Shown: positions 4,087 through 16,248, numbered from the stretch's first letter. The stretch: DNA of 16,613 nucleotides from Phycisphaerae bacterium (GCA_041687095.1 JAWLCQ010000100.1:1-16613); one strand, 5' to 3'. Numbers and translations: made by a program. The notes: a model not told the origin generated them from the letters alone.

Positions 4087-4287
4087 TTGAAGCAACTGCA
4101 GCAGAACATGACGATGATCTACTGGAAGGGCGAGACGCACTGGGTAGGCAAACTGCTGGAGCACCCCGAGATCATGACCCAGGGCGAAACGCTGGGGGAA
4201 CTCGAGGAGAACCTCCGAGACGCCTACCGCATGATGGTCCTTGAGGATGTGCCCGAAGACCACCACACGAAGGCCATCGCGATATGA
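4087..4287 (+). CDS. hicB: Short HicB-family (UPF0150/RNase-H-like fold) antitoxin, 66 aa.
   Basis: ...IYWKGETHWVGKLLEHPEIMTQGETLGELEENLRDAYRMMVLED... matches the short HicB pattern (hhhh-dg-W-a-v-elPg-v-tqG-TleEa-eNl-eA). TTG start at 4087 lies 6 nt after a GGAGG at 4076-4080. Internal ATGs at 4108 and 4114 are alternatives. Confidence 0.6.
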   Translation: MKQLQQNMTMIYWKGETHWVGKLLEHPEIMTQGETLGELEENLRDAYRMMVLEDVPEDHHTKAIAI

Positions 4288-4465
4288 AGCGAAAGAGTTC
4301 GTCCACCGCCTCTCCCGGGACGGTTGCGTGCTCCTTCGCTCCGGGGGCAGACATGACATCTACCTCCATCCCAAGACGGGGCGGAAGCAACCGGTTCCCC
4401 GGCACGTGGAGATCGACGACGCCCTTGCACGACACATCCGCAAGTTCCTGGGCCTGGAACCGTAG
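4241..4465 (+). CDS. hicA: HicA-family mRNA-interferase toxin (YcfA-like). The canonical ATG (4284) is out of frame. The body is readable only from TTG 4241 or ATG 4247 inside hicB. Possible frameshifted pseudogene or start-shifted gene.
   Basis: Body ...KEFVHRLSRDGCVLLRSGGRHDIYLHPKTGRKQPVPRHVEIDDALARHIRKFLGL matches the HicA consensus (GSH...HP...vPrH...lkqlgl). The hicB TGA overlaps ATG 4284 in ATGA. A 1-nt indel in the A-run around 4292-4294 separates that ATG from the HicA frame. Confidence 0.55.
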   Translation: MRMCPKTTTRRPSRYEAKEFVHRLSRDGCVLLRSGGRHDIYLHPKTGRKQPVPRHVEIDDALARHIRKFLGLEP

Positions 4466-4621: not shown

Positions 4622-4657
4622 GCTGATAGCTGATAGCTAACGGCGGATGGCTGAGAG
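4622..4657 (+). repeat. Array of 7-bp units GCTGATA GCTGATA GCTAACG GCGGATG GCTGAGA upstream of pspA1.
   Basis: Period-7 repetition read directly from the sequence. The same unit recurs in direct and inverted arrays at 5677-5778. Confidence 0.6.
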
Positions 4658-4731: not shown

Positions 4732-5460
4732 ATGGGGCTGTTTGCACGTCTACACCGCATCACTGTGGGCCGCGTCGAGGCCTTCCTTGCGCGCGCCGAG
4801 GACCCCGAGATCATCTTCCCCCAACTCGTCCGCGAGATGGAGGACCAGTTGCGCCTCGCGACCGACGCCGAGGCCAAGGCCGCCGCGGCCGTCAAGGCCG
4901 CCCAGCGCGACCTCCGCACCGCCGCCGAGAGCGGGCAGCGCATGCACCGCGGGGCCGCCCTCGCCCTCCAGCAGGGCGACGAGGCCACCGCCCGCAAGGC
5001 CCTCGCCGCCCAAATCGACGCCGAACGCTCCGCCGCCCAGGCCCACGACGCCGTCGGCGGCGCCGAGGCCACCCGACTCCAGGCGGAAGGGGCGCGGCAG
5101 CAGATCCAGCGCCAACTGGAGGAGCTGCGCTCCAAGCGCAACGAGATCCTCACCCGCTCCCGCGTCGCCCAGACCCGCCAGAAGATCCAGCGGACCGTCG
5201 GGGGCTCGGCCGGGACGACCGACACCATCCTCGACGCCGTCGCCCGCCTGGAGGCCGGGGTCGAGGAGGTCGAGGCCGAACTGGAGATCCAGTCCCGCCT
5301 CACGGGCGGACCGGCGACGGGCCCGTCGCTGGAGGCCAGGCTCTCGGAACTCGAGGGCCAGGCCCAGATCGAATCCCGCCTCGCCGAGTTGCGGCGGAGC
5401 GTGGAAGGCGAGGGCGACAGCGCGCCCGCGGTGGCGGAAGCGGCATCCGAAACCCAGTGA
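4732..5460 (+). CDS. pspA: PspA/IM30/Vipp1 family protein (phage-shock protein A-like, ESCRT-III superfamily), 242 aa. Paralog 1.
   Basis: N-terminus MGLFARLHRITVGRVEAFLARAEDPE...LVREMEDQL matches the PspA family N-terminal helix (E. coli PspA [27 protein letters not shown]...IQEMEDTL). Long coiled-coil body. GAGGAG RBS lies 7 nt upstream of the ATG. Confidence 0.9.
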   Translation: MGLFARLHRITVGRVEAFLARAEDPEIIFPQLVREMEDQLRLATDAEAKAAAAVKAAQRDLRTAAESGQRMHRGAALALQQGDEATARKALAAQIDAERSAAQAHDAVGGAEATRLQAEGARQQIQRQLEELRSKRNEILTRSRVAQTRQKIQRTVGGSAGTTDTILDAVARLEAGVEEVEAELEIQSRLTGGPATGPSLEARLSELEGQAQIESRLAELRRSVEGEGDSAPAVAEAASETQ

Positions 5461-5488
5461 TCTTCCTGCGTCCCGCGCGTCCACAACG

Positions 5489-5509
5489 CCCCCGGACTGC
5501 GTCCGGGGG
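5489..5509 (+). terminator. GC-clamp hairpin CCCCCGGAC-tgc-GTCCGGGGG (9-bp perfect stem) 28 nt after the pspA1 stop. Probable intrinsic terminator. A similar hairpin lies at about 5571-5592.
   Basis: Perfect inverted repeat followed by a tgtcgtgg tract. Position is immediately 3' of the CDS. Confidence 0.45.
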
Positions 5510-5676
5510 GTGTCGTGGCCAGCCACGGTCCTGGGAATAGGGGGACCGGGCGCTTCGGTGACGGAGCGCACCCCCCTGATGCAGTCCGGGGGGCGTTGGG
5601 CGCCGGGGCGCGTTACAACCCGTGCGGAAACAACATGAACGGTCCAGCAGCCACGAGAGCAGAGTTGAAGCCTTTG

Positions 5677-5778
5677 GCTATCAGCTATCAGCTGTCAGCT
5701 AACAGCTTTCAGCAGACTTGTCTGGATTCTCCTCGCTCCTCGCTGATCGCTGATCGCTGATCGCTGAAAGCCGATAGC
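5677..5778. repeat. Large imperfect palindrome built from heptamer arrays. (TCAGCTN)x5 at 5677-5716 and (GCTGATC)x3-5 at 5742-5778 face each other across a 25-bp centre.
   Basis: Units were read directly. The left array is the reverse complement of the right array and of the 4622-4657 array. Confidence 0.6.
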
Positions 5779-5996
5779 TTGTCGGATCGCTGTTCAGGTT
5801 GTTCCTGCGGAGCGCCTGACCCGGATCTGTCCGGGGACGCCGAAACGTCTCCTGGTGGGTCTGGAGTCGGAGACATTTGAGACTGCTGACTTGATTCTGA
5901 ACCATCCGTCCCGTATGGGAATATCGTACGGCGGCGGCCAGGCACCGGCTGAAGGGCCCCCCGTGGGCGAGGCGGCCGGTGGGAAAGGGCGGAAGC

Positions 5997-6668
5997 ATGT
6001 CCATCTTTGAACGCATTCAACGCATCGCCAAGGCCAACGTGAACTGGCTGCTCGACCGGGTCGAGCCGCCCGAGCAGGAACTCGAGTCCCGCATCCGTGA
6101 GCTGGAACAGGCCCTTCGGGAGGGCCGCGAGTGCGCCGCCACCTACGGGGCCACCTTCCGCCGCATGGAACGCGAGCAGGAGCAGCTCCGCCTGCAGCAG
6201 GCCCAGTGGCAGCAGCGGGCGCAGCAGGCGGTGGCGGGCGGGGACGACGACACCGCCCGCCGCGCCCTGGGCGAGAAGGTCCGCCTGGGCGAGCGCGTGG
6301 CCAACCTCACCCCCGGGATCGAGCAGGGCCGCCGAACGTACGACCAACTCCGCGACAACCTCGCCAAGCTCCAGGACCAGCTCCGCGGGGCGAAGCTCAA
6401 GCTCGAGGAACTCCGCTCCCGCCGCCGCACCGCCGAAGCCCAGAAGGCCTTCGGGCAGCACCTCGACGGGGCGCTGGGCGCCGCGGACGGGGCCGCCTTC
6501 GAACGCCTCGAGGACACCGTCCTTCAGACCGAGGCCGAGGTCGAAGTCGCCGACGAGATCCGCGGAACCGCCCTGCTGGACGCGGACCTGGAGCAACGCT
6601 CGCGCGACCTGCAGGTCGACGCCGAACTCCGCGCCCTCAAGGCCGAGTTCGACGGGGACGAACGCTGA
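5997..6668 (+). CDS. PspA/IM30/Vipp1 family protein, paralog 2 (about 223 aa). A different subfamily from paralogs 1 and 3.
   Basis: MSIFERIQRIAKANVNWLLDRVEPPE... is the PspA N-terminal amphipathic helix motif, followed by a coiled-coil body. The ATG is at ORF-track 5979+18. The in-frame GTG at 5979 is a less likely start. Confidence 0.85.
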   Translation: MSIFERIQRIAKANVNWLLDRVEPPEQELESRIRELEQALREGRECAATYGATFRRMEREQEQLRLQQAQWQQRAQQAVAGGDDDTARRALGEKVRLGERVANLTPGIEQGRRTYDQLRDNLAKLQDQLRGAKLKLEELRSRRRTAEAQKAFGQHLDGALGAADGAAFERLEDTVLQTEAEVEVADEIRGTALLDADLEQRSRDLQVDAELRALKAEFDGDER

Positions 6669-6681
6669 AAGGACTCGTGCC

Positions 6682-7362
6682 ATGTGGGACGTCATCACCG
6701 CCGCTTTCCTGCCCGTGAACCTGGTGTTCACCGTGCTGCTGCTCGCGATGGTGCTGTATTGGCTCGCGGTCATCCTCGGGGCGCTGGACACGGAGTTCCT
6801 CAACGTGGACCTCCATGGCGGGGCGGACGCGGGGGCTGACCTCGACGTCCACGCCGACGTCGACCTGGACGGGGACGCCGACGCGGGCTTCGCCCACACG
6901 TGGATGGGGCACATGCTGGCGTTCTTCTACGTCGGGGAAATCCCCGTCATGATCCTCGTCAGCATCCTCATCCTGAGCATGTGGACGATCTCCGTGATCG
7001 CCAACCACTACCTCAACCCGACGGGCTCGCTGCTGCTCTGGACGCCGATCGTCGCGGCCAACCTGCTGGCGAGCCTGCTGGTGCTCAAGGTGGTGGGGCG
7101 CCCCTTCCAGCGGGTCTTCGCGGCGCTGAACACCGACGCCAACGCCCCCCGCCCCGTCATCGGGCGGATCGGGATCGTGCTCACCACGCAGGTGTCCGAA
7201 CGGATCGGACAGGTGGAGGTGCCCGAGCGGGGCGCCCCGCTGCTGCTCAACGCAATCACCGAGGATGGCCGCGTCCTGCGTAAGGGGGATGAGGCCGTAG
7301 TGGTCCGCAGGGACAACGAGCGGGGCGTGTACATCGTCGCCCCCGTAGAACTGGAGACATGA
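6682..7362 (+). CDS. yqiJ: NfeD-like membrane protein (YqiJ/YuaF-type flotillin partner), 226 aa. N-terminal TM helices, an acidic Asp/His-rich loop and a C-terminal NfeD OB-fold beta-barrel.
   Basis: C-terminal ...GRIGIVLTTQVSERIGQVEVPERGAPLLLNAITEDGRVLRKGDEAVVVRRDNERGVYIVAPVE fits the NfeD short-form beta-barrel pattern. It starts 13 bp after the pspA2 stop. Its stop overlaps the flotillin ATG in ATGA (7359-7362). Confidence 0.7.
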   Translation: MWDVITAAFLPVNLVFTVLLLAMVLYWLAVILGALDTEFLNVDLHGGADAGADLDVHADVDLDGDADAGFAHTWMGHMLAFFYVGEIPVMILVSILILSMWTISVIANHYLNPTGSLLLWTPIVAANLLASLLVLKVVGRPFQRVFAALNTDANAPRPVIGRIGIVLTTQVSERIGQVEVPERGAPLLLNAITEDGRVLRKGDEAVVVRRDNERGVYIVAPVELET

Positions 7363-9425
7363 ACATGATTCTGGCAGCCTTAGCATCGGACGCAATCCTC
7401 TTCGCCTTCGCCCTCGGGGCGGTCATCGTCATCGGCGTCCTGGCGCTGATCGTCAAGTGTTACCGCAAGGTCTCCCAGGGCGAGGCCCTCATCCGCAACG
7501 GGCTGGGGGGGACCAAGGTGAGCTTCTCGGGCATGGTCGTCATCCCCGTCCTGCACAAGGCCGAGTACATGGACATCTCGGTCAAGCGGATCGAGATCGA
7601 CCGCCGCGCCATCCAGGGCCTCATCTGCAAGGACAACCTCCGCGCCGACATCGTCGTCGCCTTCTTCGTGCGGGTGAACAAGACCGTCGACGACGTCATC
7701 AAGGTCGCCCAGTCCCTCGGCTGCGCGCGGGCGAGCGACTCCAAGGCCCTCGTCGAACTCTTCGACGCCAAGTTCTCCGAGGCCCTCAAGACCGTCGGGA
7801 AGCAGTTCGACTTCGCCGAGCTGTACATCAACCGCGTCCGCTTCCGCGAGCAGATCCTCGACATCATCGGGACCGATCTGTCGGGCTACGCCCTCGAGGA
7901 CGCCGCCATCGACTACCTCGAACAGACCGACAAGAAGCTCCTCAATCCCGACAACATCCTCGACGCCGAGGGCATCAAGAAGATCACCGTCCTGACGGCC
8001 GAGCAGTTCGAACTCGCCAACGCCCGCGAGCGTGAGAAGGACAAGACGATCAAGAAGCAGGACGTCGAGGCCGGGGAGGCCATCCTCGAACTGCAGCGCC
8101 AATACGCCGAGGCCGAGGCCAAGCAGAAGCGCGAGATCGCCGAGGTCCAGGCCCGCGAGGAGTCCTCCGCCCACCAGGTGCAGGCCCAGGAGCGTCAAAA
8201 GGCCGAGAAGGCCCGCATCGCCGCCGACGAGGACATCGCCGTCGCCGAGGAGAACCGCCTCCGCCAGATCATCGTCGCCGCCAAGAACAAGGAACGCACC
8301 GAGGCCGTCGAGATCGAACGCGTCGAACGCGAACGCGGCCTGGAGGCGACCGAGCGCGAGCGCCTCGTCTCCCTCGCCCAGCTCGCCAAGGACAAGGCCG
8401 TCGAGTCCGAGCGCAAGGAACTGCAGGACGTCGTCCGCACCCGCGTCGAGGTCGAACGCGGTGTCGCCGTCGAGGAGGAACGCATCAAGGACACCCGCGA
8501 GTTCGCCTCCGCCGACCGCTCCAAGCGCGTCCAGATCACCAAGGCCGAAGAGGAAGCCGAGCAGGCCCTCGTCAAGGACATCAAGCAGGCCGAGGCCGCC
8601 CGCAAGGCCGCCGAGCACTACGCCCAGCAGCAGCTCATCGACGCCCAGGCCCACCTGGAGGCGTCCGAGAAGAACGCCGACGCCAAGAAGGCCCTCGCCG
8701 CCGCCGGGGTCAAGGAATCCGCCGTCGAAGGCATCGCCGAGGCGGAGGTCCTCGAGGCCAAGGCCCGCGCCTTCCGCGCCCAAGGCCAGGTCGAGGCCGA
8801 CATCCTCGCCCTCAAGGCCGACGCCAAGGAGAAGGACGGGACCGCCGAGGCCACCGTCGCCCAACGCAAGTACGCCGCGGAGGCCGAGGGCATCACCGCC
8901 AAGGCCGAAGCGATGAAGCTCTTCAACGACGCGGGCAAGGACCACGAGGAGTTCAAGCTCCGCCTCCAGAAGGACCTCGAAGTCGAACTCGCCGAGATCC
9001 GCATCCGCAAGGACGTCGCCGCCGAACAGGCCAAGCTCGTGGGCGAGGCCCTCAAGAGCGCCAAGATCGACATCGTCGGGGGCGAGAACCGCTTCTTCGA
9101 GCGGCTCGTCAACTCCATCACCACCGGAAAGATGGTCGACCGCGCGGTCCAGAACAGCGAGGTCCTGCAGGACTTCCGCGCGGCGATCGTGGGGGCGGAC
9201 GGGCAGGAGACGATGACCCGCATCCGCGAGATGGTCGGGCGCTTCGGGCTCTCCAGCGAGGACGTCAAGAACCTCACGGTCTCAGCGCTGATGATGAAGC
9301 TCATCGGGCTCGCCCAGGACCAGGAGAAGGGCCTCCTCCGCAACCTCCTCGACGCCGCCCACGCCGCCGGGATCTCCAACCACCCCGTCGCGACGTACCT
9401 CGCCCCGGCGGTGGAGACCAAGTAG
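7359..9425 (+). CDS. yqiK: Flotillin-like SPFH/band-7 protein of the YqiK type, 688 aa, with an unusually long Glu/Ala/Lys/Arg-rich coiled-coil region.
   Basis: N-terminal TM segment then ...YRKVSQGEALIRNGLGGTKVSFSGMVVIPVLHKAEYMDISVKRIEIDR...DIVVAFFVRVNKTVDDVIKVAQSLG. This aligns closely with E. coli YqiK (LYRRASAEQAFVRTGLGGQKVVMSGGAIVMPIFHEII...VDVVVAFFVRVKPSVEGIATAAQTLG). It is translationally coupled to the upstream NfeD gene. Confidence 0.9.
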   Translation: MNMILAALASDAILFAFALGAVIVIGVLALIVKCYRKVSQGEALIRNGLGGTKVSFSGMVVIPVLHKAEYMDISVKRIEIDRRAIQGLICKDNLRADIVVAFFVRVNKTVDDVIKVAQSLGCARASDSKALVELFDAKFSEALKTVGKQFDFAELYINRVRFREQILDIIGTDLSGYALEDAAIDYLEQTDKKLLNPDNILDAEGIKKITVLTAEQFELANAREREKDKTIKKQDVEAGEAILELQRQYAEAEAKQKREIAEVQAREESSAHQVQAQERQKAEKARIAADEDIAVAEENRLRQIIVAAKNKERTEAVEIERVERERGLEATERERLVSLAQLAKDKAVESERKELQDVVRTRVEVERGVAVEEERIKDTREFASADRSKRVQITKAEEEAEQALVKDIKQAEAARKAAEHYAQQQLIDAQAHLEASEKNADAKKALAAAGVKESAVEGIAEAEVLEAKARAFRAQGQVEADILALKADAKEKDGTAEATVAQRKYAAEAEGITAKAEAMKLFNDAGKDHEEFKLRLQKDLEVELAEIRIRKDVAAEQAKLVGEALKSAKIDIVGGENRFFERLVNSITTGKMVDRAVQNSEVLQDFRAAIVGADGQETMTRIREMVGRFGLSSEDVKNLTVSALMMKLIGLAQDQEKGLLRNLLDAAHAAGISNHPVATYLAPAVETK

Positions 9426-9447
9426 CGGAGCCGTGACGGCGAAGAGG

Positions 9448-9637
9448 AAATCCGAAATCCGAAACACGAAGTCCGAAACAAATTCGAAACGGCAAATTCA
9501 AATGACAGAAACTAAGGAACACCCCAGCGGGCGCCCACAGGCTTGTACAGCGGGGTTCGCTTGCGAGCGTCCGTTTTGAACATTTGAGTTTCGTGCTTTG
9601 AATTTGTTTCGGATTTCGTGCTTCGGATTTCGGATTT
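9448..9637. repeat. AT-rich inverted-repeat element. 57-nt arms (9448-9504 and 9581-9637, about 47/57 identical as reverse complements) are each built from 8 heptamer units (AAATCCG / CGGATTT) and flank a 76-nt centre. Candidate MITE, structured RNA, RNase III processing site or regulator binding array. It ends 26 nt before the giant gene's ATG.
   Basis: Arms were aligned by hand after reverse-complementing. The period-7 internal structure was read directly. The AT content is strikingly higher than the 70% GC surroundings. Confidence 0.7.
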
Positions 9638-9662
9638 GGGAGCTGCAGAACCGAGGATCGGT

Positions 9663-12600
9663 ATGACTGAGCAGAAGGAACAACAGGCGTCCCCGCCTCC
9701 GCAGACACAGCTCGAAGGTGGGACGTACGAGATCATCCGCCGGCGACTGGCGGAGCGGGGGCAGGAGCTGCGCCAGCGGATCGAGCAGCTCAACGACGCC
9801 CGCAAGGACGTCTTCGGGACCATCGAGACCCAGCTCACCGCCAGCGAGTCAATCTCCACCGACAACAACTGCGTCCCGCGGGACATGGTGTCCGTGGGGC
9901 GCAGCTTCCTCTTCGGGTACAACGTCTTCATCGGCCTGCGGGCCCAGACCGTGCTGGAGGATGTCTTCGCCCAGTACGAATGGGCCGATGGCGCCTTCCG
10001 CCGCCAGGAGCTGACGCTCCTGCGCGGGGAGCGGTTCGAGACCGACTTCCGCAACCTCTACAAGTACTACCGCCACACCACCTTCGCGAAGTTCCACGAG
10101 GCGGGCCCGCACCTGTACCTCGTCTTCCGCACGGGCAAGGCCGTCACCGACGTCAAGACCTTCAAGTTCCTCCTCCGCGGGGAGGCCCTGGAGTACGTCG
10201 ACAACCGCAGCGACCACGAGTACGCCTTCCCCCCCCAGCAGGAGTTCGACTGGACGCGGGTGACGCACGACATGCAGCGCAGCGGCCGCTGCCCCCACGT
10301 CTCCATCGCCGACCGCGTCTTCGTCGAGACGATGGGCGGGGACCTGACGATCAAGATCGAGGACAACACCGAGAGCGGGGAGGGCATCTACTCCGAGCCC
10401 GTGGACAACCCCGACCAGACCCTCGACGACGCCGAGATGTACTACGCCCTCGTCGGGAACCTCATCGTCCTCAAGATCCGCCCCTACCAGGAGAAGGCCT
10501 GGCGGCACATCGTGTACAGCGAGAAGGCCCAGCAGGCCGTCCGCATCGACTCCATCGCCGACGCCTGCGTCCTGCTGCCCGACGGGCACGGGCTGATCTT
10601 CCCCCGAGGGTGCTACCTCCAGACGGGCGAGCTGAAGCTCTTCGAGATCGAGATCGAGGACATGGTCTTCGATCGCCGCATCGCCAGCCCCAACGGGGAG
10701 GACTACCTCTACCTCTTCTACAACCGCGACAGCGGCACGTACGTCCTGCTGGGCTACAACGTCATCGCCCAGCGCGTCGCCACCCCCATCGTCTGCAACG
10801 GGTACTCGCTCTTCGACGACGGGACGCTCCTGTACTTCCGCGCGGGCACGCAGCCCCAGAAGCACCACACGCTCCAGGTCTGGCAGACGCCCTTCCGCGG
10901 GCCCGACTTCCGCCAGGAGGTCCGCACCGACTCGCACCTCTACCGCATCGGCAACAAGGACATCGTCCGCTGCATGGCCGAGTGCCACGAACTGCTCGTC
11001 CTCCTGGGCAAGGAGGACACCTACGCCAACCTCTACGTCGACATCGCCCGCACCGCGCAGAACATCCTCGACGGGTACTTCTGGCTCAACAGCCCCGACA
11101 CCTTCCGCCTCGACGAACCCCTCCGCGCCCTGCAGGAGGCCGCCGCCGGGGCCATCGCCGAGTTCGAGAAGGTCACCCGCACCCAGCGCGACACCCGCCA
11201 GCGCATCGCCGCCGCCCGCGACCGCGTCCGCAAGGCCATCGCCTCCATCGACTACTACCACCTCGACGACATCGGCACCTTCGTCCGCCTCCTCGCCGAA
11301 CTCCGCGCCCTCCGCGGCGAGGTCATCGGCCTCAAGGACCTGCGGTACGCGGACCTGCCCCTCGTCGAGGCGCTGGAGGCCGAGGTCGCCCAGCACGCCG
11401 AGACGCTCTCCGCCCGCTGCGTCGAGTTCCTGCTGCAGCCCGAGGCGCTGGCGCCGTACGTCCAGCGGATCGAGGCCCACCAGGCGGCGATCCCCGAACT
11501 CGCCAAGGTCACCGACGCCAAGGCCCTCGCCGAGCAGCTCGCCGCCGCCACCGCGGAGCTGGAGATGCTCATCGAGATCGTCAGCAACCTCAAGATCGAC
11601 GACGCCACGCAGACGACGGCGATCATCGACGCCATCTCGCTCGTCCTCGCCCAGCTCAACAAGGCCAAAAGCGCCCTCAAGAACCGCACCTCCGCCCTCG
11701 CCGCCAGCGAAGGCGCCGCCGAGTACGCCTCCCAGACCCAGCTCATCGACCAGGCCGTCATCAACTACCTCGACGTCTGCGATGCCCCTGACCGCTGCGA
11801 CGAGTACCTCGGGAAGGTCATGGTCCAGCTCGAGACCCTCGAGTCCCGCTTCGCGGACTTCGACGACTTCGTCGTCCAACTCGCCCAGAAGCGCGAGGAG
11901 GTCTACGGGGCCTTCGAGTCCCGCAAGGCCCAGCTCGTCGAGGACCGCAACCGCCGCTGCTCCGCCCTCCTGTCCGCCGCCCAGCGCGTCCTCAAGGGCG
12001 TCCGCAACCGCGCCGCCGCCCTCGCCACCCTCAACGAGATCAACGCCTACTTCGCGTCCGACCTCATGATCGAACGCGTCCGCGAAACCGTCCGCCAACT
12101 CCGCGCCCTGGGCGACACCGTCAAGGCCGACGACATCGACTCGCAGCTCAAGAGCCTCCAGCAGGACTCCGCCCGCCAGCTCAAGGACCGCCAGGCCCTC
12201 TACGAGGACGGGGAGAGCGTCATCCGCTTCGGGCGCCACCGCTTCAGCGTCAACCACCAGAACCTCGAACTCACCACCGTCCTCCGCGACGGGGAGCTGT
12301 ACCTGCACCTCACGGGCACGGGGTTCTTCGAGCGGGTCACCGACCCCGACCTGCTCGCCACCCGCGACACGTGGGGCCTGGAGTGCGTGAGCGAGAGCCC
12401 CGCGGTCTACCGCTCCGAGTACCTCGCCTACCTCCTGCTCCGCGACGCGCAGGAGCGGGGCGAGGCGGCCGTCGAGGAACTCGCGGGGCTCGACGACGAC
12501 GCGCTGCTCCAGCGGGTGCAGGCGTTCATGGCCCCGCGGTACGCGGAGGGGTACGTCAAGGGCGTCCACGACGCCGACGCCGCCCTCCTCCTCCGCGCGC

Positions 12601-15044
12601 TGCTGCACCTGCGGGCGTCGGTGGGGCTCCTCGCCTACGCCCCCCCCGCCCGCGCCCTGGCGAGCGTGTACTGGCGATGGCAGGAGGACGGGGAGGCGAA
12701 GGCCCGGCTCTCCGCGCGTTTGGCGGCGGCGGGGAGGGCCCGCACGCTCTTCGCCGACCGGCGGATCGACGGGCCCTACATCGCCGAACTCCGCGACGCC
12801 CTCGCGGGCTTCGCCGAGCGGACGAGGCTCTTCGACGCCCAGCACGTCGCCCCCGCGGCCGAGTACCTCTACCACGCCCTCGCCGCCAACGGGTCGGGCC
12901 CGTCCGCCCCCGCGCCCTTCGCGCTCAGCGCGGTGGCGGCGGGGATCCGCAAGCGGTTCGAGTCGCACCTGCGGCACAGGAAGCACGATTCGCACTTCAC
13001 CTCGGCGGCCGAGGCGCTGGCGGACGACCTGGTGAACGGGTATCGGCTGCGCCGGGAGTGGGTGGCGTCGTACCTCGGCGCACATGGGAGCGCGGAGGAG
13101 CACGAGTTCGCCGACGAAGTCGCCGCCGCCCTCCTCGACGGGCAGTCCCCCCCCGCCGTCATCGACGTCCCCCTGGCGGTGGACCTGGAGGGCCTGGCGG
13201 GATCGCACCCGCGGATCCAGGACGGCAAGTGCCGGGTGAACTACGGGCACTTCCTCACCCGCCTGCAGCACCACGAGCGGGAGGTGGCCCCGAAGTTCCG
13301 GGCGTACGTGGAGGCGAAGAAGCGCCTGCTGGCGGAGGCCTCGGAGGCGATGCGCCTCGACGAGTACCAGGCGCGGGTGCTGACGACGTTCGTCCGCAAC
13401 AAGCTCATCGACAAGGTCTTCCTGCCGCTGGTGGGCGACAACCTCGCCAAGCAGATCGGGACCGTGGGGCAGGACAAGCGGACGGACCGCCAGGGGTTGC
13501 TGCTGCTGATCAGCCCCCCGGGGTACGGCAAGACGACGCTGATGGCGTACGTCGCCAACCGCCTGGGGCTGATCTTCGTGAAGGTCAACGGGCCCGCCAT
13601 CGGCCACCGCGTGACGAGCCTCGACCCCTCCGAGGCGCCCAACGCCTCCGCCCGGTCCGAGCTGGAGAAGATCAACCTCGCCTTCGAGATGGGCGACAAC
13701 GTGATGATCTACCTGGACGACATCCAGCACTGCCACCCCGAGCTGCTCCAGAAGTTCATCCCCCTCTGCGACGCCACCCGCCGCGTCGAGGGCGTGTACA
13801 AGGGGCGGACGAAGACCTACGACCTGCGCGGCAAGCGCGTGTGCGTGGTGATGGCCGGGAACCCCTTCACCGAGAGCGGGGAACGCTTCCAGGTCCCCGA
13901 CATGCTCACCAACCGCGCCGACACCTACAACATCGGCGACATCGTGGGCGACAACCGAAGCGAGTTCGAACTCAGCGTCATCGAGAACTGCCTCACCAGC
14001 AACCCCATCCTCGCCCCACTGATGAACCGCTCGCAGGAGGATGTCTACGCCCTCATCCGCCTCACCGAGACGGGCGAGCGGGAGGGCATCGAGTTCGAGG
14101 GCGCCTACTCCCCCGACGAACTCAACGAGTACGTCTCCGTCCTCCGCAAGCTCTTCATCGTCCGCGACGTGGTCCTCAAGATGAACGCCCAGTACATCGC
14201 GTCGGCCGGGACCGCCGACGAGTACCGCACCGAACCCCCCTTCCTCCTCCAGGGCTCGTACCGCAACATGAACCGCATCGCCTCGCGGGTCCTGCCCGTG
14301 ATGAACGACGCGGAGCTGTGGACGCTCATCGAGTCCAGCTACGAACAGGACGCCCAGACCCTCACCACCTCCGCCGAAGCGAACCTGCTCCGCTTCCGCG
14401 AACTCGTCGGCCGACAGACCCCCCAGCAGGCCGCCCGCCTCGAGGAGATCCGCAAGACCTTCCGCCGCAACCTGCTGCTGGGCGGGGAGAGCGACGACAA
14501 GTTCGGGACCATGATCCGCCAGCTCAACGCGTTCTCCGCGGGGCTGGACTCCATCCGCGACGTGCTCGCCGGGGGGGTCGGAGCCCTGGCCAAGGCGAAG
14601 ACGCCCGAGGCGCCCGACCCGCTCCGCCAGACCGCCGACGCCGTCCTCGGCCGCATGGATCGCATCGTCACCGAACTCCGCGAGCAGCGCAAGGCCCTGA
14701 TCGAGCACGACTCCGCCCAAAGCGCCGCCGACGCCGCCCACGCCGCCGCCGGACTCACGGGCATCCTCGAGGAGCAGTTCCGCACGATGGAGACGTGGCT
14801 GCGACCCGTCGCCCGGACGGAGGCGGGACGCGCCCAGTACGCCAACGACCTCGTCCGCCGCTTCGAGGACATGATCGACGGGTACTCCCGCCTCGTGGGC
14901 ATCCTCAAGGAGCGGCAGGCGGGGCACGACGCCGACGAGGCCGACGTGGAGATCACGGTGCGGAGCGGGGATGCGGATCCGCAGGAACCGCCCGATGCCG
15001 AAACGGACGTGACCGAGAACGACGCGAGCCACGAGCAGACGTAA
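9663..15044 (+). CDS. Giant 1793-aa soluble protein with one MoxR/AAA_5-type AAA+ ATPase module in the C-terminal third. Walker A GYGKTT is near residue 1287, Walker B DD at 1352-1353, and a sensor-1 Asn near 1400. The long N-terminal region is mixed beta-rich and coiled-coil, and the tail is acidic. No named family recognised.
   Basis: ...LLLISPPGYGKTTLMAYVANRLG..., ...VMIYLDDIQHCHPELLQKFIPLCDATRRVEGVYKGRTKTYDLRGKRVCVVMAGNPFTESGERFQVPDMLTNRADTYNI... parallels MoxR (hhhhDEINRa-p--qsaLLeamqe...atqNP...lp-a-lDRF). GAGGA RBS lies 5 nt upstream of ATG 9663. The ORF-track start 9618 is an upstream extension reading through the IR element. Strong coding periodicity over 5.4 kb. Confidence 0.85.
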   Translation: MTEQKEQQASPPPQTQLEGGTYEIIRRRLAERGQELRQRIEQLNDARKDVFGTIETQLTASESISTDNNCVPRDMVSVGRSFLFGYNVFIGLRAQTVLEDVFAQYEWADGAFRRQELTLLRGERFETDFRNLYKYYRHTTFAKFHEAGPHLYLVFRTGKAVTDVKTFKFLLRGEALEYVDNRSDHEYAFPPQQEFDWTRVTHDMQRSGRCPHVSIADRVFVETMGGDLTIKIEDNTESGEGIYSEPVDNPDQTLDDAEMYYALVGNLIVLKIRPYQEKAWRHIVYSEKAQQAVRIDSIADACVLLPDGHGLIFPRGCYLQTGELKLFEIEIEDMVFDRRIASPNGEDYLYLFYNRDSGTYVLLGYNVIAQRVATPIVCNGYSLFDDGTLLYFRAGTQPQKHHTLQVWQTPFRGPDFRQEVRTDSHLYRIGNKDIVRCMAECHELLVLLGKEDTYANLYVDIARTAQNILDGYFWLNSPDTFRLDEPLRALQEAAAGAIAEFEKVTRTQRDTRQRIAAARDRVRKAIASIDYYHLDDIGTFVRLLAELRALRGEVIGLKDLRYADLPLVEALEAEVAQHAETLSARCVEFLLQPEALAPYVQRIEAHQAAIPELAKVTDAKALAEQLAAATAELEMLIEIVSNLKIDDATQTTAIIDAISLVLAQLNKAKSALKNRTSALAASEGAAEYASQTQLIDQAVINYLDVCDAPDRCDEYLGKVMVQLETLESRFADFDDFVVQLAQKREEVYGAFESRKAQLVEDRNRRCSALLSAAQRVLKGVRNRAAALATLNEINAYFASDLMIERVRETVRQLRALGDTVKADDIDSQLKSLQQDSARQLKDRQALYEDGESVIRFGRHRFSVNHQNLELTTVLRDGELYLHLTGTGFFERVTDPDLLATRDTWGLECVSESPAVYRSEYLAYLLLRDAQERGEAAVEELAGLDDDALLQRVQAFMAPRYAEGYVKGVHDADAALLLRALLHLRASVGLLAYAPPARALASVYWRWQEDGEAKARLSARLAAAGRARTLFADRRIDGPYIAELRDALAGFAERTRLFDAQHVAPAAEYLYHALAANGSGPSAPAPFALSAVAAGIRKRFESHLRHRKHDSHFTSAAEALADDLVNGYRLRREWVASYLGAHGSAEEHEFADEVAAALLDGQSPPAVIDVPLAVDLEGLAGSHPRIQDGKCRVNYGHFLTRLQHHEREVAPKFRAYVEAKKRLLAEASEAMRLDEYQARVLTTFVRNKLIDKVFLPLVGDNLAKQIGTVGQDKRTDRQGLLLLISPPGYGKTTLMAYVANRLGLIFVKVNGPAIGHRVTSLDPSEAPNASARSELEKINLAFEMGDNVMIYLDDIQHCHPELLQKFIPLCDATRRVEGVYKGRTKTYDLRGKRVCVVMAGNPFTESGERFQVPDMLTNRADTYNIGDIVGDNRSEFELSVIENCLTSNPILAPLMNRSQEDVYALIRLTETGEREGIEFEGAYSPDELNEYVSVLRKLFIVRDVVLKMNAQYIASAGTADEYRTEPPFLLQGSYRNMNRIASRVLPVMNDAELWTLIESSYEQDAQTLTTSAEANLLRFRELVGRQTPQQAARLEEIRKTFRRNLLLGGESDDKFGTMIRQLNAFSAGLDSIRDVLAGGVGALAKAKTPEAPDPLRQTADAVLGRMDRIVTELREQRKALIEHDSAQSAADAAHAAAGLTGILEEQFRTMETWLRPVARTEAGRAQYANDLVRRFEDMIDGYSRLVGILKERQAGHDADEADVEITVRSGDADPQEPPDAETDVTENDASHEQT

Positions 15045-15087
15045 GTGGCACCGTGCCCCGACGCTTGCGTCTCAGGGAAGCAAGTGA

Positions 15088-15239
15088 CGTGGGTGCCACG
15101 GCTGCGCCGTTTGCAGCCGTGCTGGCGTGGGTGCCACGGCTGCGCCGTTTGCAGCCGTGCTGGCGTGGGTGCCACGGCTGCGCCGTTTGCAGCCGTGCTG
15201 GCGTGGGTGCCACGGCTGCGCCGTTTGCAGCCGTGCTGG
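15088..15239 (+). repeat. Four perfect tandem copies of a 38-bp unit cgtgggtgccacggctgcgccgtttgcagccgtgctgg. Each contains a 9-bp-stem hairpin (cacggctgc-gccgttt-gcagccgtg). A degenerate inverted copy and three 21-bp repeats (15269-15331) follow.
   Basis: Copies were compared base by base. 38 is not a multiple of 3 and there are no spacers, so this is neither a coding repeat nor a CRISPR array. Confidence 0.8.
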
Positions 15240-15423
15240 CGGGAAGGACACGGCTGCAGACAGCGCAGCCGTGGCACCCGCAGTAGAAGCCGTGGCACCC
15301 GCAGTAGAAGCCTGGGCGCCCGCAGTGGAAGGCTGGGTGCCGTGGTTTGCGGAGCGCAGCGGAGCAACCACGTCAAACCGACGTGGCAGCCCGAGCCAGG
15401 CGGTACCGTAGTGGCATGCAACG

Positions 15424-15445
15424 CCCCCCGACCGGGTCGGGGGGG
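15424..15445 (+). terminator. GC-clamp hairpin CCCCCCGAC-cgg-GTCGGGGGG (9-bp perfect stem) between the repeat region and pspA3. Same hairpin family as 5489-5509.
   Basis: Perfect inverted repeat read from the sequence. Confidence 0.4.
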
Positions 15446-15570
15446 TGAGCCTGGAGAAGACGAAGCTTCGCGTTCGCGGACAGCAGCGCGAAGTACCGAT
15501 ACGAACGGCAGATGTCAACCCTGTCCCCGGCCGCACGCTGTTTGCGGTCCGGGGGCATCAGGATCGCAGT

Positions 15571-16248
15571 ATGGGATTCATTGATAGACTCAAGCGAATC
15601 ACCCTCGGACGGGTGGAGGCGTTCCTGGCCGCCCAGGAGACCCCCGAAACCGTCCTGCCCCAACTCGTCGAGGAGCTGGCCGCCAAGGTCCGCCAATCCG
15701 CCGATGCCGAGGCCAAGGCCCTCACCGCCGTCAAGGCCGCCCAGCGCCGCTGCGATGAGGCCCGCGGGCGGTCCCAGCGGATGGGCCAGGGGGCCCACTT
15801 GGCGCTGCAGGCGGGGGACCCCGACCTCGCCCGCCGCGCCCTCGCCGCCCAACTCGACGCCGAACGCGAACTCGACGCCCACCTCCCCCCCCTCGCCGCC
15901 GCCGAGTCCGCCCTGGAGTCGGCGAGGGCGGCGAGGCGGCAGTTGGGCGAGACGCTCGAGCAGGTGAAGGCGCGGCGGGACGAGCTGATCGCCCGCGCCA
16001 AGGCCGCCCGCGCCCGCCAGACCGCCCCCCCCCAGCGTGGATCCATCCTCGACGCCGTCGCCCGCATGGAGGAGAAGGTCGGACACGCCGAGGCCCACGC
16101 CGACGCCCGCGACGAAGTCGCCCGCACACTGGGCCCCGACGTGGTCGAACGCGACCTCGAAGAACTCCGCCGCAACGCCGAAGTCGAACGCCGCCTCCAG
16201 GAACTCAAGGCCCGCCTCGGTGGGCAGGGGCAGGGGGAGCAGGCGTAG
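15571..16248 (+). CDS. PspA/IM30/Vipp1 family protein, paralog 3 (225 aa). Closely related to paralog 1.
   Basis: MGFIDRLKRITLGRVEAFLAAQETPETVLPQLVEELAAKV... parallels paralog 1 (MGLFARLHRITVGRVEAFLARAEDPEIIFPQLVREMEDQL). ATG 15571 was chosen over the ORF-track start 15445, whose N-terminal extension is not PspA-like. Confidence 0.85.
   Translation: MGFIDRLKRITLGRVEAFLAAQETPETVLPQLVEELAAKVRQSADAEAKALTAVKAAQRRCDEARGRSQRMGQGAHLALQAGDPDLARRALAAQLDAERELDAHLPPLAAAESALESARAARRQLGETLEQVKARRDELIARAKAARARQTAPPQRGSILDAVARMEEKVGHAEAHADARDEVARTLGPDVVERDLEELRRNAEVERRLQELKARLGGQGQGEQA

Follow-up and report, generated by a model that had tools for sequence, protein, structure and literature searches.

What system is encoded by a run of six co-directional genes in a contig of a Phycisphaerae bacterium, and on what does the giant AAA+ ATPase among them act? 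The genes lie on the plus strand at 4732-16248 of GCA_041687095.1 (JAWLCQ010000100.1:1-16613), a stretch of 16,613 nucleotides (nt) with a base composition of ~68% G+C that is called the window here. They encode, in this order, two PspA proteins (PspA1 and PspA2), a short NfeD-like membrane protein, a flotillin-type SPFH protein, the giant ATPase and a third PspA protein (PspA3). A sequence-only reading of the window had regarded them as a membrane-remodelling or defence module for which no described system was known. Its placement of the six genes was confirmed by sequence and Pfam searches with small start-codon corrections. The claim of novelty does not stand, because the operon type already appears in Ravi et al. 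2024 (PMC11237479) and the giant protein is 43% identical over 1680 amino acids (aa) to BacE (PA3728) of Pseudomonas aeruginosa. The cassette is thus a Phycisphaerae-type variant of a known operon class and the same system as the bacABCDEF operon. With regard to both family and general role, it is probably a cassette for the maintenance or remodelling of the cytoplasmic membrane, belonging to the bacABCDEF/Ravi-type family.

The composition of the system was derived from the gene neighbourhoods of the giant protein. One genome per GTDB species was scanned, which gave at least 574 relatives, and the best 80 loci were kept; their six-frame open reading frames (ORFs) were searched with the window proteins, with an iterated PspA hidden Markov model and by all-against-all clustering. 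These loci cover Planctomycetota, Bacteroidota, Verrucomicrobiota, Desulfobacterota, Clostridia and Lentisphaeria, and the relatives nearest to the window are Phycisphaerae, Sedimentisphaerales and Anaerohalosphaeraceae. Where at least 3.2 kb of upstream flank was available, a flotillin gene lay upstream of the giant gene and co-directional with it in 61 of 63 loci, and an NfeD-like gene was also present in 56 of the 63. PspA adjoined in only 19 of the 61 loci with at least 5 kb of upstream flank, that is in about one third, and hence the constant partner of the ATPase is the flotillin/NfeD pair and not PspA. The condition under which the sequence-only reading would have been refuted, homologues of the giant protein that mostly lack PspA or flotillin neighbours, clearly does not hold for flotillin. 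The two loci without flotillin at this place carry a STAND NTPase with TPR in one case and Uma2 with TonB_C in the other. The NfeD-flotillin-ATPase triad was also found in Actinomycetota, Pseudomonadota and Acidobacteriota (Streptomyces, the plasmid pQBR103, Sulfidibacter, Lysobacter and P. aeruginosa), and in many lineages it occurs without PspA. Three proteins therefore make up the invariant core of the system: the short NfeD-like protein of the membrane, the flotillin-type SPFH protein and the giant ATPase, which is cytoplasmic. The association with PspA is real but lineage-restricted.

Among close relatives of the window the whole cassette is preserved. Six loci were sampled (L081, L082, L083, L089, L090 and L091; giant proteins 56-62% identical to that of the window, precomputed Pfam annotation), and all six show the order PspA, PspA, NfeD-like, flotillin, giant ATPase, PspA, with spacers of 11-143 nt and unrelated flanking genes. 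The recurrence of identical gene order across many unrelated genomes places the arrangement far beyond chance. Together with the flotillin linkage, the six-gene order in all six relatives upholds the view of the sequence-only reading that the genes form one functional module. A PspA gene downstream of the giant gene was seen in L001, L058, L081-L083 and L089-L091. L089 (3331-3885) and L091 (3229-3801), and outside these six also L008 (7005-7556), contain an extra Band_7 gene of 184-190 aa between the NfeD-like and large flotillin genes, which makes a seven-gene cassette.

The operon class described by Ravi et al. (mSystems, PMC11237479, section 19, Table S3) combines a CesT/Tir-PspA dyad with YqiJ/YuaF, a Band-7/flotillin protein and an ATPase built of beta-propeller, coiled-coil and AAA+ parts; the example given is Dokdonia donghaensis ANH61663.1. 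A phospholipase D (PLD) gene is added in some Proteobacteria, the CesT/Tir-PspA dyad is optional and abbreviated operons without PspA are more widespread, and the functional prediction was made in silico only. Popp et al. 2022 reported PspA with Band-7/FloT and NfeD in Acidobacteriota. The P. aeruginosa locus that we recovered reads DUF2170, PspA, a 213-aa protein, a 688-aa protein, DUF3686 (P0123, 1746 aa), PLDc_2, YaeQ, RecJ and M4 peptidase, and its DUF3686 string is PA3732-PA3727, bacABCDEF (the 'biofilm-associated cluster'). All six bac genes are co-transcribed according to reverse transcription PCR, a sigma-54 promoter has been predicted, and BacB-F accumulate jointly 6- to 13-fold in a bacA mutant (PMC10948618). 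Mutants in bacA or bacB have biofilm, rhamnolipid and virulence phenotypes, and the abundance of BacB rises during osmotic shock.

The Bacteroidota layout of Ravi et al. was recovered in 18 loci, where a divergent cHTH-protease gene is followed by a conserved 140-aa ORF and the PspA, NfeD-like, flotillin and giant genes (e.g., L017, 4142-6278). The 140-aa ORF corresponds to the CesT/Tir-like protein of Ravi et al., and the divergent gene encodes an HTH regulator with a C-terminal protease-like domain. BLAST detected no similarity between this ORF and P. aeruginosa BacA, and their equivalence follows from the profile analysis of Ravi et al. only. On the Pseudomonas fluorescens megaplasmid pQBR103 (L084, 1-10668) the triad directly follows a DUF2491-DUF350-DUF1190-glutathionylspermidine synthase string, so that both PspA-associated operon classes of Ravi et al. 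are united there.

The window has no ORF that could be a CesT/Tir-like gene before PspA, between the end of hicA (4465) and the start of pspA1 (4732), and none of the six close relatives has a CesT-like gene before PspA or a PLD gene downstream of the giant gene; PLDc_2 is present downstream in P. aeruginosa and Lysobacter. In the window the ATPase gene is followed by PspA, and the contig ends 365 nt after PspA3. It is the lack of a CesT-like gene that makes the window cassette a variant, and the triple-PspA, CesT-less Planctomycetota arrangement is not listed in the available portions of the text and table of Ravi et al. (PMC11237479). What is new is the set of three ancient, position-specific PspA paralogs, together with the lack of CesT-like and PLD genes.

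The PspA family is placed in the ESCRT-III superfamily by the literature, and PspA2 also matches Snf7 weakly in Pfam (E 8e-4). The positional orthologues of PspA1 in L081, L082 and L083 score 190-230 bits and those of PspA2 218-305 bits. Orthogroups 'a' (PspA1) and 'c' (PspA3) are sisters, with ~100-190 bits between the groups, and orthogroup 'b' (PspA2) is distant, with ~20-80 bits to either. Three orthogroups defined by position indicate old, differentiated paralogs, which speaks against a recent origin of the three-fold duplication that had been noted. When PspA subtypes were compared across phyla for signs of independent recruitment, every inter-group score was similarly low (35-80 bits).

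The architecture of the giant protein was approached by structure prediction, as the sequence-only reading had suggested, and this resolved a propeller, a helical region and a MoxR-type AAA+ core. The AlphaFold2 models were built on 58-sequence alignments and reached mean predicted local distance difference test (pLDDT) values of 85 and 82. An N-terminal helix (residues 19-51) precedes an all-beta domain (57-408) and long helices (425-843, ~420 residues), followed by a small beta element, a helical domain, the AAA+ alpha/beta core with its lid (~1280-1515) and a helical tail. DUF7902 (E 6.5e-26) falls at residues 609-691 of the longer GTG-start translation (9618-15044). In Foldseek searches of the PDB the beta domain matched CyRPA, prolyl oligopeptidase, the trilobed-protease propeller and WD40/Kelch proteins (E ~1e-5 to 1e-3). 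The best matches of the ATPase core were the MoxR chaperones CbbQ (6l1q) and NorQ (9qh6), with probability 1.00 and a target-normalised template-modelling score of ~0.6; they outranked RuvB, Lon and classical AAA proteins, which confirms the earlier assignment to the MoxR/AAA_5 class and its unlikeness to Vps4. At the sequence level PDB matches were confined to the P-loop region, without any relative of solved structure, and similarity to VCP/Cdc48 was confined to the Walker A region.

Walker A reads PPGYGKTT (nt 13521-13538) and Walker B is the variant DDIQH (nt 13716-13730, residues 1352-1356), with the Asp-Asp pair at nt 13716-13721. Across 318 family members PPGYGKTT, the sensor-1 motif AGNP and PDML-NRA are nearly invariant. 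The family is large: at 50% identity, 771 representatives are reached by a search with the N-terminal domain (E up to 1e-3), of which 253 have E up to 1e-30, full-length relatives measure 1600-1900 aa, and at 90% identity the family comprises more than 5,000 clusters. Databases name its members 'DNA repair ATPase' or 'MoxR-like ATPase', and the former is probably a misnomer, an unsupported legacy label of the DUF3686 family. A literature search for DUF3686 found no paper that mentions it.

The NfeD-like protein matches YqiJ_N weakly (E 1e-3, under the Pfam cut-off), a profile matched by 6 of 17 members of its family (best E 2e-5), and the top PDB match of the family profile is YuaF (2k14) with a non-significant E of 0.49. 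PF01957, the C-terminal OB-fold of NfeD, was matched neither by the window protein nor by the family members scanned. The protein can be aligned from end to end with those of P. aeruginosa and pQBR103, the alignment shows a layout of transmembrane (TM) segments and a C-terminal beta domain, and the P. aeruginosa orthologue PA14_16160 has been termed short NfeD (PMC13086221). In the flotillin an N-terminal TM segment is followed by an SPFH domain, a long coiled coil rich in Glu and Ala, and a C-terminal region that is conserved; Band_7 is matched only in a scan restricted to its first 250 aa. The flotillin shares 46% identity with PA3729/PaFlo3 of P. aeruginosa. A PDB search with its sequence gave no match, and one with the family profile gave a weak match to QmcA (8z5g, E 0.007). 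No signal peptide or extracytoplasmic domain was predicted in any of the six cassette proteins, and the sequence of the giant protein contains no TM segment. The positions of all features are collected in Table 1.

Table 1. Genes of the cassette, domains of the giant ATPase and upstream ORFs in the window.
Feature	Position (nt)	Strand	Description
PspA1	4732-5460	+	242 aa; PspA/IM30 family, PF04012 E 1.5e-26; orthogroup 'a'
PspA2	5997-6668	+	223 aa; PspA/IM30 family, PF04012 E 5.3e-31; orthogroup 'b'; canonical PspA-like N-terminus
YqiJ/YuaF-type short NfeD-like protein	6682-7362	+	226 aa; three TM segments, acidic loop, C-terminal beta domain
SPFH/Band-7 protein, flotillin (YqiK-like) architecture	7359-9425	+	688 aa; Band_7 E 1.3e-11
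Giant ATPase	9663-15044	+	1793 aa; DUF3686 E 5.6e-181, DUF7902, AAA/AAA_5
Beta-propeller of giant protein, DUF3686 core	9831-10886	+	residues ~57-408; AlphaFold2 and Foldseek
All-helical coiled-coil-like region of giant protein, including DUF7902	10935-12191	+	residues ~425-843; AlphaFold2
MoxR-class AAA+ module of giant protein	13500-14207	+	Foldseek (CbbQ/NorQ) and motifs
PspA3	15571-16248	+	225 aa; PspA/IM30 family, PF04012 E 5.9e-22; orthogroup 'c', sister to PspA1
HicA toxin gene	4241-4465		E 3.6e-10
66-aa ORF preceding and overlapping hicA	4087-4287		marginal UPF0150/HicB-like match, E 0.1

The tight coupling of PspA2, NfeD-like and flotillin genes noted earlier can be read directly from the DNA: 13 nt separate PspA2 from the NfeD-like gene, whose stop overlaps the flotillin start as ATGA at 7359-7362, and the NfeD-like and flotillin genes are translationally coupled. 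The remaining spacers are long and structured. The PspA1-PspA2 spacer (537 nt) is rich in repeats, with GCTGATAGC- and CGCTGAT-type simple repeats and a GC-rich hairpin after PspA1. The flotillin-giant spacer (238 nt) holds an inverted repeat (9448-9637) with 57-nt arms, 86% complementary, that are made up of GAAATCC/GAAAC-like simple repeats; its predicted RNA fold has a free energy of -104.5 kcal/mol (z -7.25). The 3' arm overlaps an alternative GTG start at 9618, from which a longer ORF enters the intergenic hairpin, and the collection's gene call starts the giant gene at ATG 9663. In the giant-PspA3 spacer (527 nt, 15045-15570; free energy -198.6 kcal/mol, z -7.1) five tandem 38-nt units at 15085-15280 are followed by an inverted copy, and each unit holds a GC-rich hairpin (CACGGCTGC...GCAGCCGTG). 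Since the giant and downstream PspA genes of relatives are only 11-143 nt apart, this block is regarded as a contig-specific insertion; long structured spacers were not seen in the six close relatives at all. Just downstream of PspA3 and near the contig end (16278-16473), a 14-nt unit (GCGCGTCTGCGGCG) is repeated in tandem about 12 times. The simple-sequence blocks GCTGATAGCTGATAGC (4622-4652) and CGCTGATCGCTGATCGCTGA (5669-5770) flank PspA1 in inverted orientation (31-nt arms, 77% complementary), and GC-rich hairpins lie at 5488-5511 and 15434-15450.

Searches for regulatory signals added little. Rfam at gathering thresholds gave no match in the whole window. Between 4300 and 16613 a consensus sigma-70 scan returned 0 promoters and predicted intrinsic terminators were at chance level, and neither the consensus nor the terminator scan is informative for the host organism. 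The sigma-54 -24/-12 pattern, scanned because the P. aeruginosa operon is reported to be sigma-54 dependent, gave 5 matches versus 4.5 expected, none of them upstream of a plus-strand gene. The sequence-only reading had cited the hicBA pair and the dense repeats as fitting a stress or phage-defence island. The HicA pair was not found beside the cassette in any relative examined, the repeats are likewise not kept there, and both HicA and the intergenic repeats are incidental to the cassette.

How might the parts work together? Flotillin and NfeD proteins would assemble into an oligomeric scaffold at the cytoplasmic side of the membrane, as solved SPFH-NfeD complexes do according to the literature cited in PMC13086221. 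The giant ATPase is probably hexameric, by analogy with other MoxR proteins. Its propeller and helical arm may engage the scaffold, and ATP would power the assembly, opening or recycling of the latter. PspA polymers, as bacterial members of the ESCRT-III superfamily, could act as co-effectors that seal or reshape the stressed membrane at scaffold sites. In this Phycisphaerae-type (Planctomycetota) lineage three PspA paralogs stand in place of the Proteobacterial set of CesT-like chaperone, single PspA and PLD, and the presence of three differentiated PspAs suggests a PspA heteropolymer. An ATP-driven remodeller of scaffolds, as the sequence-only reading had it, remains reasonable; its proposed action on PspA in the manner of Vps4 is less well supported than one centred on the flotillin/NfeD pair, given that PspA adjoins in a minority of loci. 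A stronger version, in which the three PspAs form an ESCRT-III-like heteropolymer nucleated on flotillin/NfeD and the giant ATPase is its dedicated remodeller, a non-homologous counterpart of Vps4, is speculative and in our opinion rather unlikely.

Several observations weigh against the membrane-remodelling role proposed here. Walker B carries Asp-Asp instead of Asp-Glu in 316 of 318 family members, which is unusual for an AAA+ protein presumed to hydrolyse ATP, and robust ATP hydrolysis is thus not assured. The substrate of the giant ATPase has been deduced from synteny alone, and a search of the literature turned up neither biochemistry nor cell biology on any protein of its family. Deletion of paFlo3 in P. 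aeruginosa lowers biofilm formation by only ~20% and causes no strong stress phenotype (PMC13086221). The surveyed loci, as the best-scoring 80 of at least 574, are biased towards relatives of the query. In the window itself, the structured spacers of 238-537 nt may modulate or break co-transcription.

The closest alternative assumes that the giant ATPase is a PspA-specific analogue of Vps4, which disassembles or recycles PspA polymers, and that flotillin and NfeD merely provide a membrane platform. The bracketing of the ATPase gene by three conserved PspA paralogs in the window lineage would fit, as would the adjoining PspA genes in Bacteroidota and Proteobacteria; Ravi et al. (PMC11237479) propose ATP-dependent remodelling for PspA-AAA+ associations generally, and bacteria apparently lack an ATPase of the Vps4 type for PspA, according to a 2025 review (PMC7619361). 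This idea is nevertheless unlikely. The ATPase follows flotillin (61 of 63 loci) and not PspA (19 of 61), which is why a remodeller centred on flotillin/NfeD is ranked higher, and the triad stands alone in many lineages. Moreover, the AAA+ module is of the MoxR class, and Foldseek revealed no MIT domain; the protein begins with a helix and then the beta-propeller.

Two further explanations find little support. One treats it, together with hicBA, as an anti-phage or abortive-infection defence island, as the sequence-only reading had considered. Several giant NTPases are known defence proteins, and PspA1 begins 267 nt beyond the HicA toxin gene. In P. aeruginosa PA3728-PA3732 are up-regulated in all phage-infected samples, being induced by two virulent phages (PMC12041424), yet phage induction also defines the classical, non-defence Psp stress response. 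A PADLOC-DB 2.0 scan of the six proteins yielded only coiled-coil (JetC) noise and a marginal P-loop match to mad8 (4e-4), HicA is not retained beside the cassette, and the flanks in relatives are variable and mostly housekeeping, apart from the two exceptional loci with a STAND-type NTPase or Uma2. No relatives were detected in 50,697 phage records or in IMG/VR, and 13 of 72,556 plasmid records carry one, mostly megaplasmids or chromids. A defence function is thus very improbable. The other explanation takes the database name literally, the giant protein being a DNA repair ATPase with membrane-gene neighbours by coincidence. Pfam describes DUF3686 as 'ATPase involved in DNA repair', NCBI uses 'DNA repair ATPase', and there are weak matches to the RuvB_N P-loop; however, RuvB and VCP matches are limited to the Walker A region, in structure the MoxR chaperones CbbQ and NorQ match best, and neither Pfam nor Foldseek revealed a DNA-binding or nuclease domain. 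Membrane-scaffold genes accompany the giant gene in nearly every locus with enough upstream flank (61 of 63), RecJ is nearby only in P. aeruginosa, two genes off and outside the operon, and the literature searched offers nothing on DUF3686 in support of the name. We regard this as the least probable explanation of all, with hardly any likelihood.

The assignment to a membrane-remodelling family matters beyond the window, as it bears on the assembly and disassembly of PspA/Vipp1 polymers and of SPFH/flotillin cages. Widespread and tightly linked to flotillin, the DUF3686 giant ATPase is a candidate for a Vps4-like role, and the triple-PspA cassette is the clearest genomic hint that it may work with a multi-subunit PspA system. 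If true, a PspA heteropolymer with a dedicated remodeller would answer how bacterial ESCRT-III polymers are recycled. The triple-PspA layout also provides a second, independent accessory arrangement for comparison with the genetically tractable bac operon.

Known systems resemble the cassette to different degrees. With ESCRT-III/Vps4 it shares the encoding of several ESCRT-III-superfamily paralogs along with one AAA+ ATPase, an analogy in logic only, since the window ATPase is of the MoxR class with a beta-propeller N-domain and not a classical-clade AAA protein with an MIT domain, and ATPases of its type track the flotillin gene and not PspA. The MoxR chaperones (CbbQ, NorQ, RavA) are closest in AAA+ core fold, with CbbQ and NorQ as the matches, and the core in the window carries the MoxR-like motifs AGNP-x-E-x-G and PDML-NR, whereas its fusion to ~1270 residues on the N-terminal side, which comprise propeller, helical arm and a helical domain, and the Asp-Asp of its Walker B set it apart; no VWA Pfam family, as a possible VWA-domain partner, was present among the neighbours in any annotated locus. 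In E. coli YqiJ-YqiK and QmcA-YbbJ and in B. subtilis YuaF-FloT an NfeD-type gene likewise lies immediately upstream of the SPFH gene and coupled to it, with a similarly cytoplasmic orientation of the products, although these classical pairs have neither a downstream giant ATPase nor PspA genes. The class of Ravi et al. has the same three-gene core and the same domain architecture of the ATPase. The nearest relative, which has been characterised genetically in part, is the bac operon; it differs in its first gene (BacA; DUF2170, CesT/YjfI-like), its last gene (the PLD-family BacF) and its single PspA of a distant subtype (~20-55 bits against the window PspAs). In the window PspA occurs as three paralogs, the third encoded after the ATPase, and the contig lacks both a CesT-like gene and a PLD gene. 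The core is orthologous, and the remaining parts correspond one by one: BacB is a PspA, BacC a short NfeD/YqiJ-like protein, BacD/PaFlo3 a flotillin and BacE/PA3728 the DUF3686 giant ATPase, and the order of NfeD, flotillin and ATPase genes is common to both.

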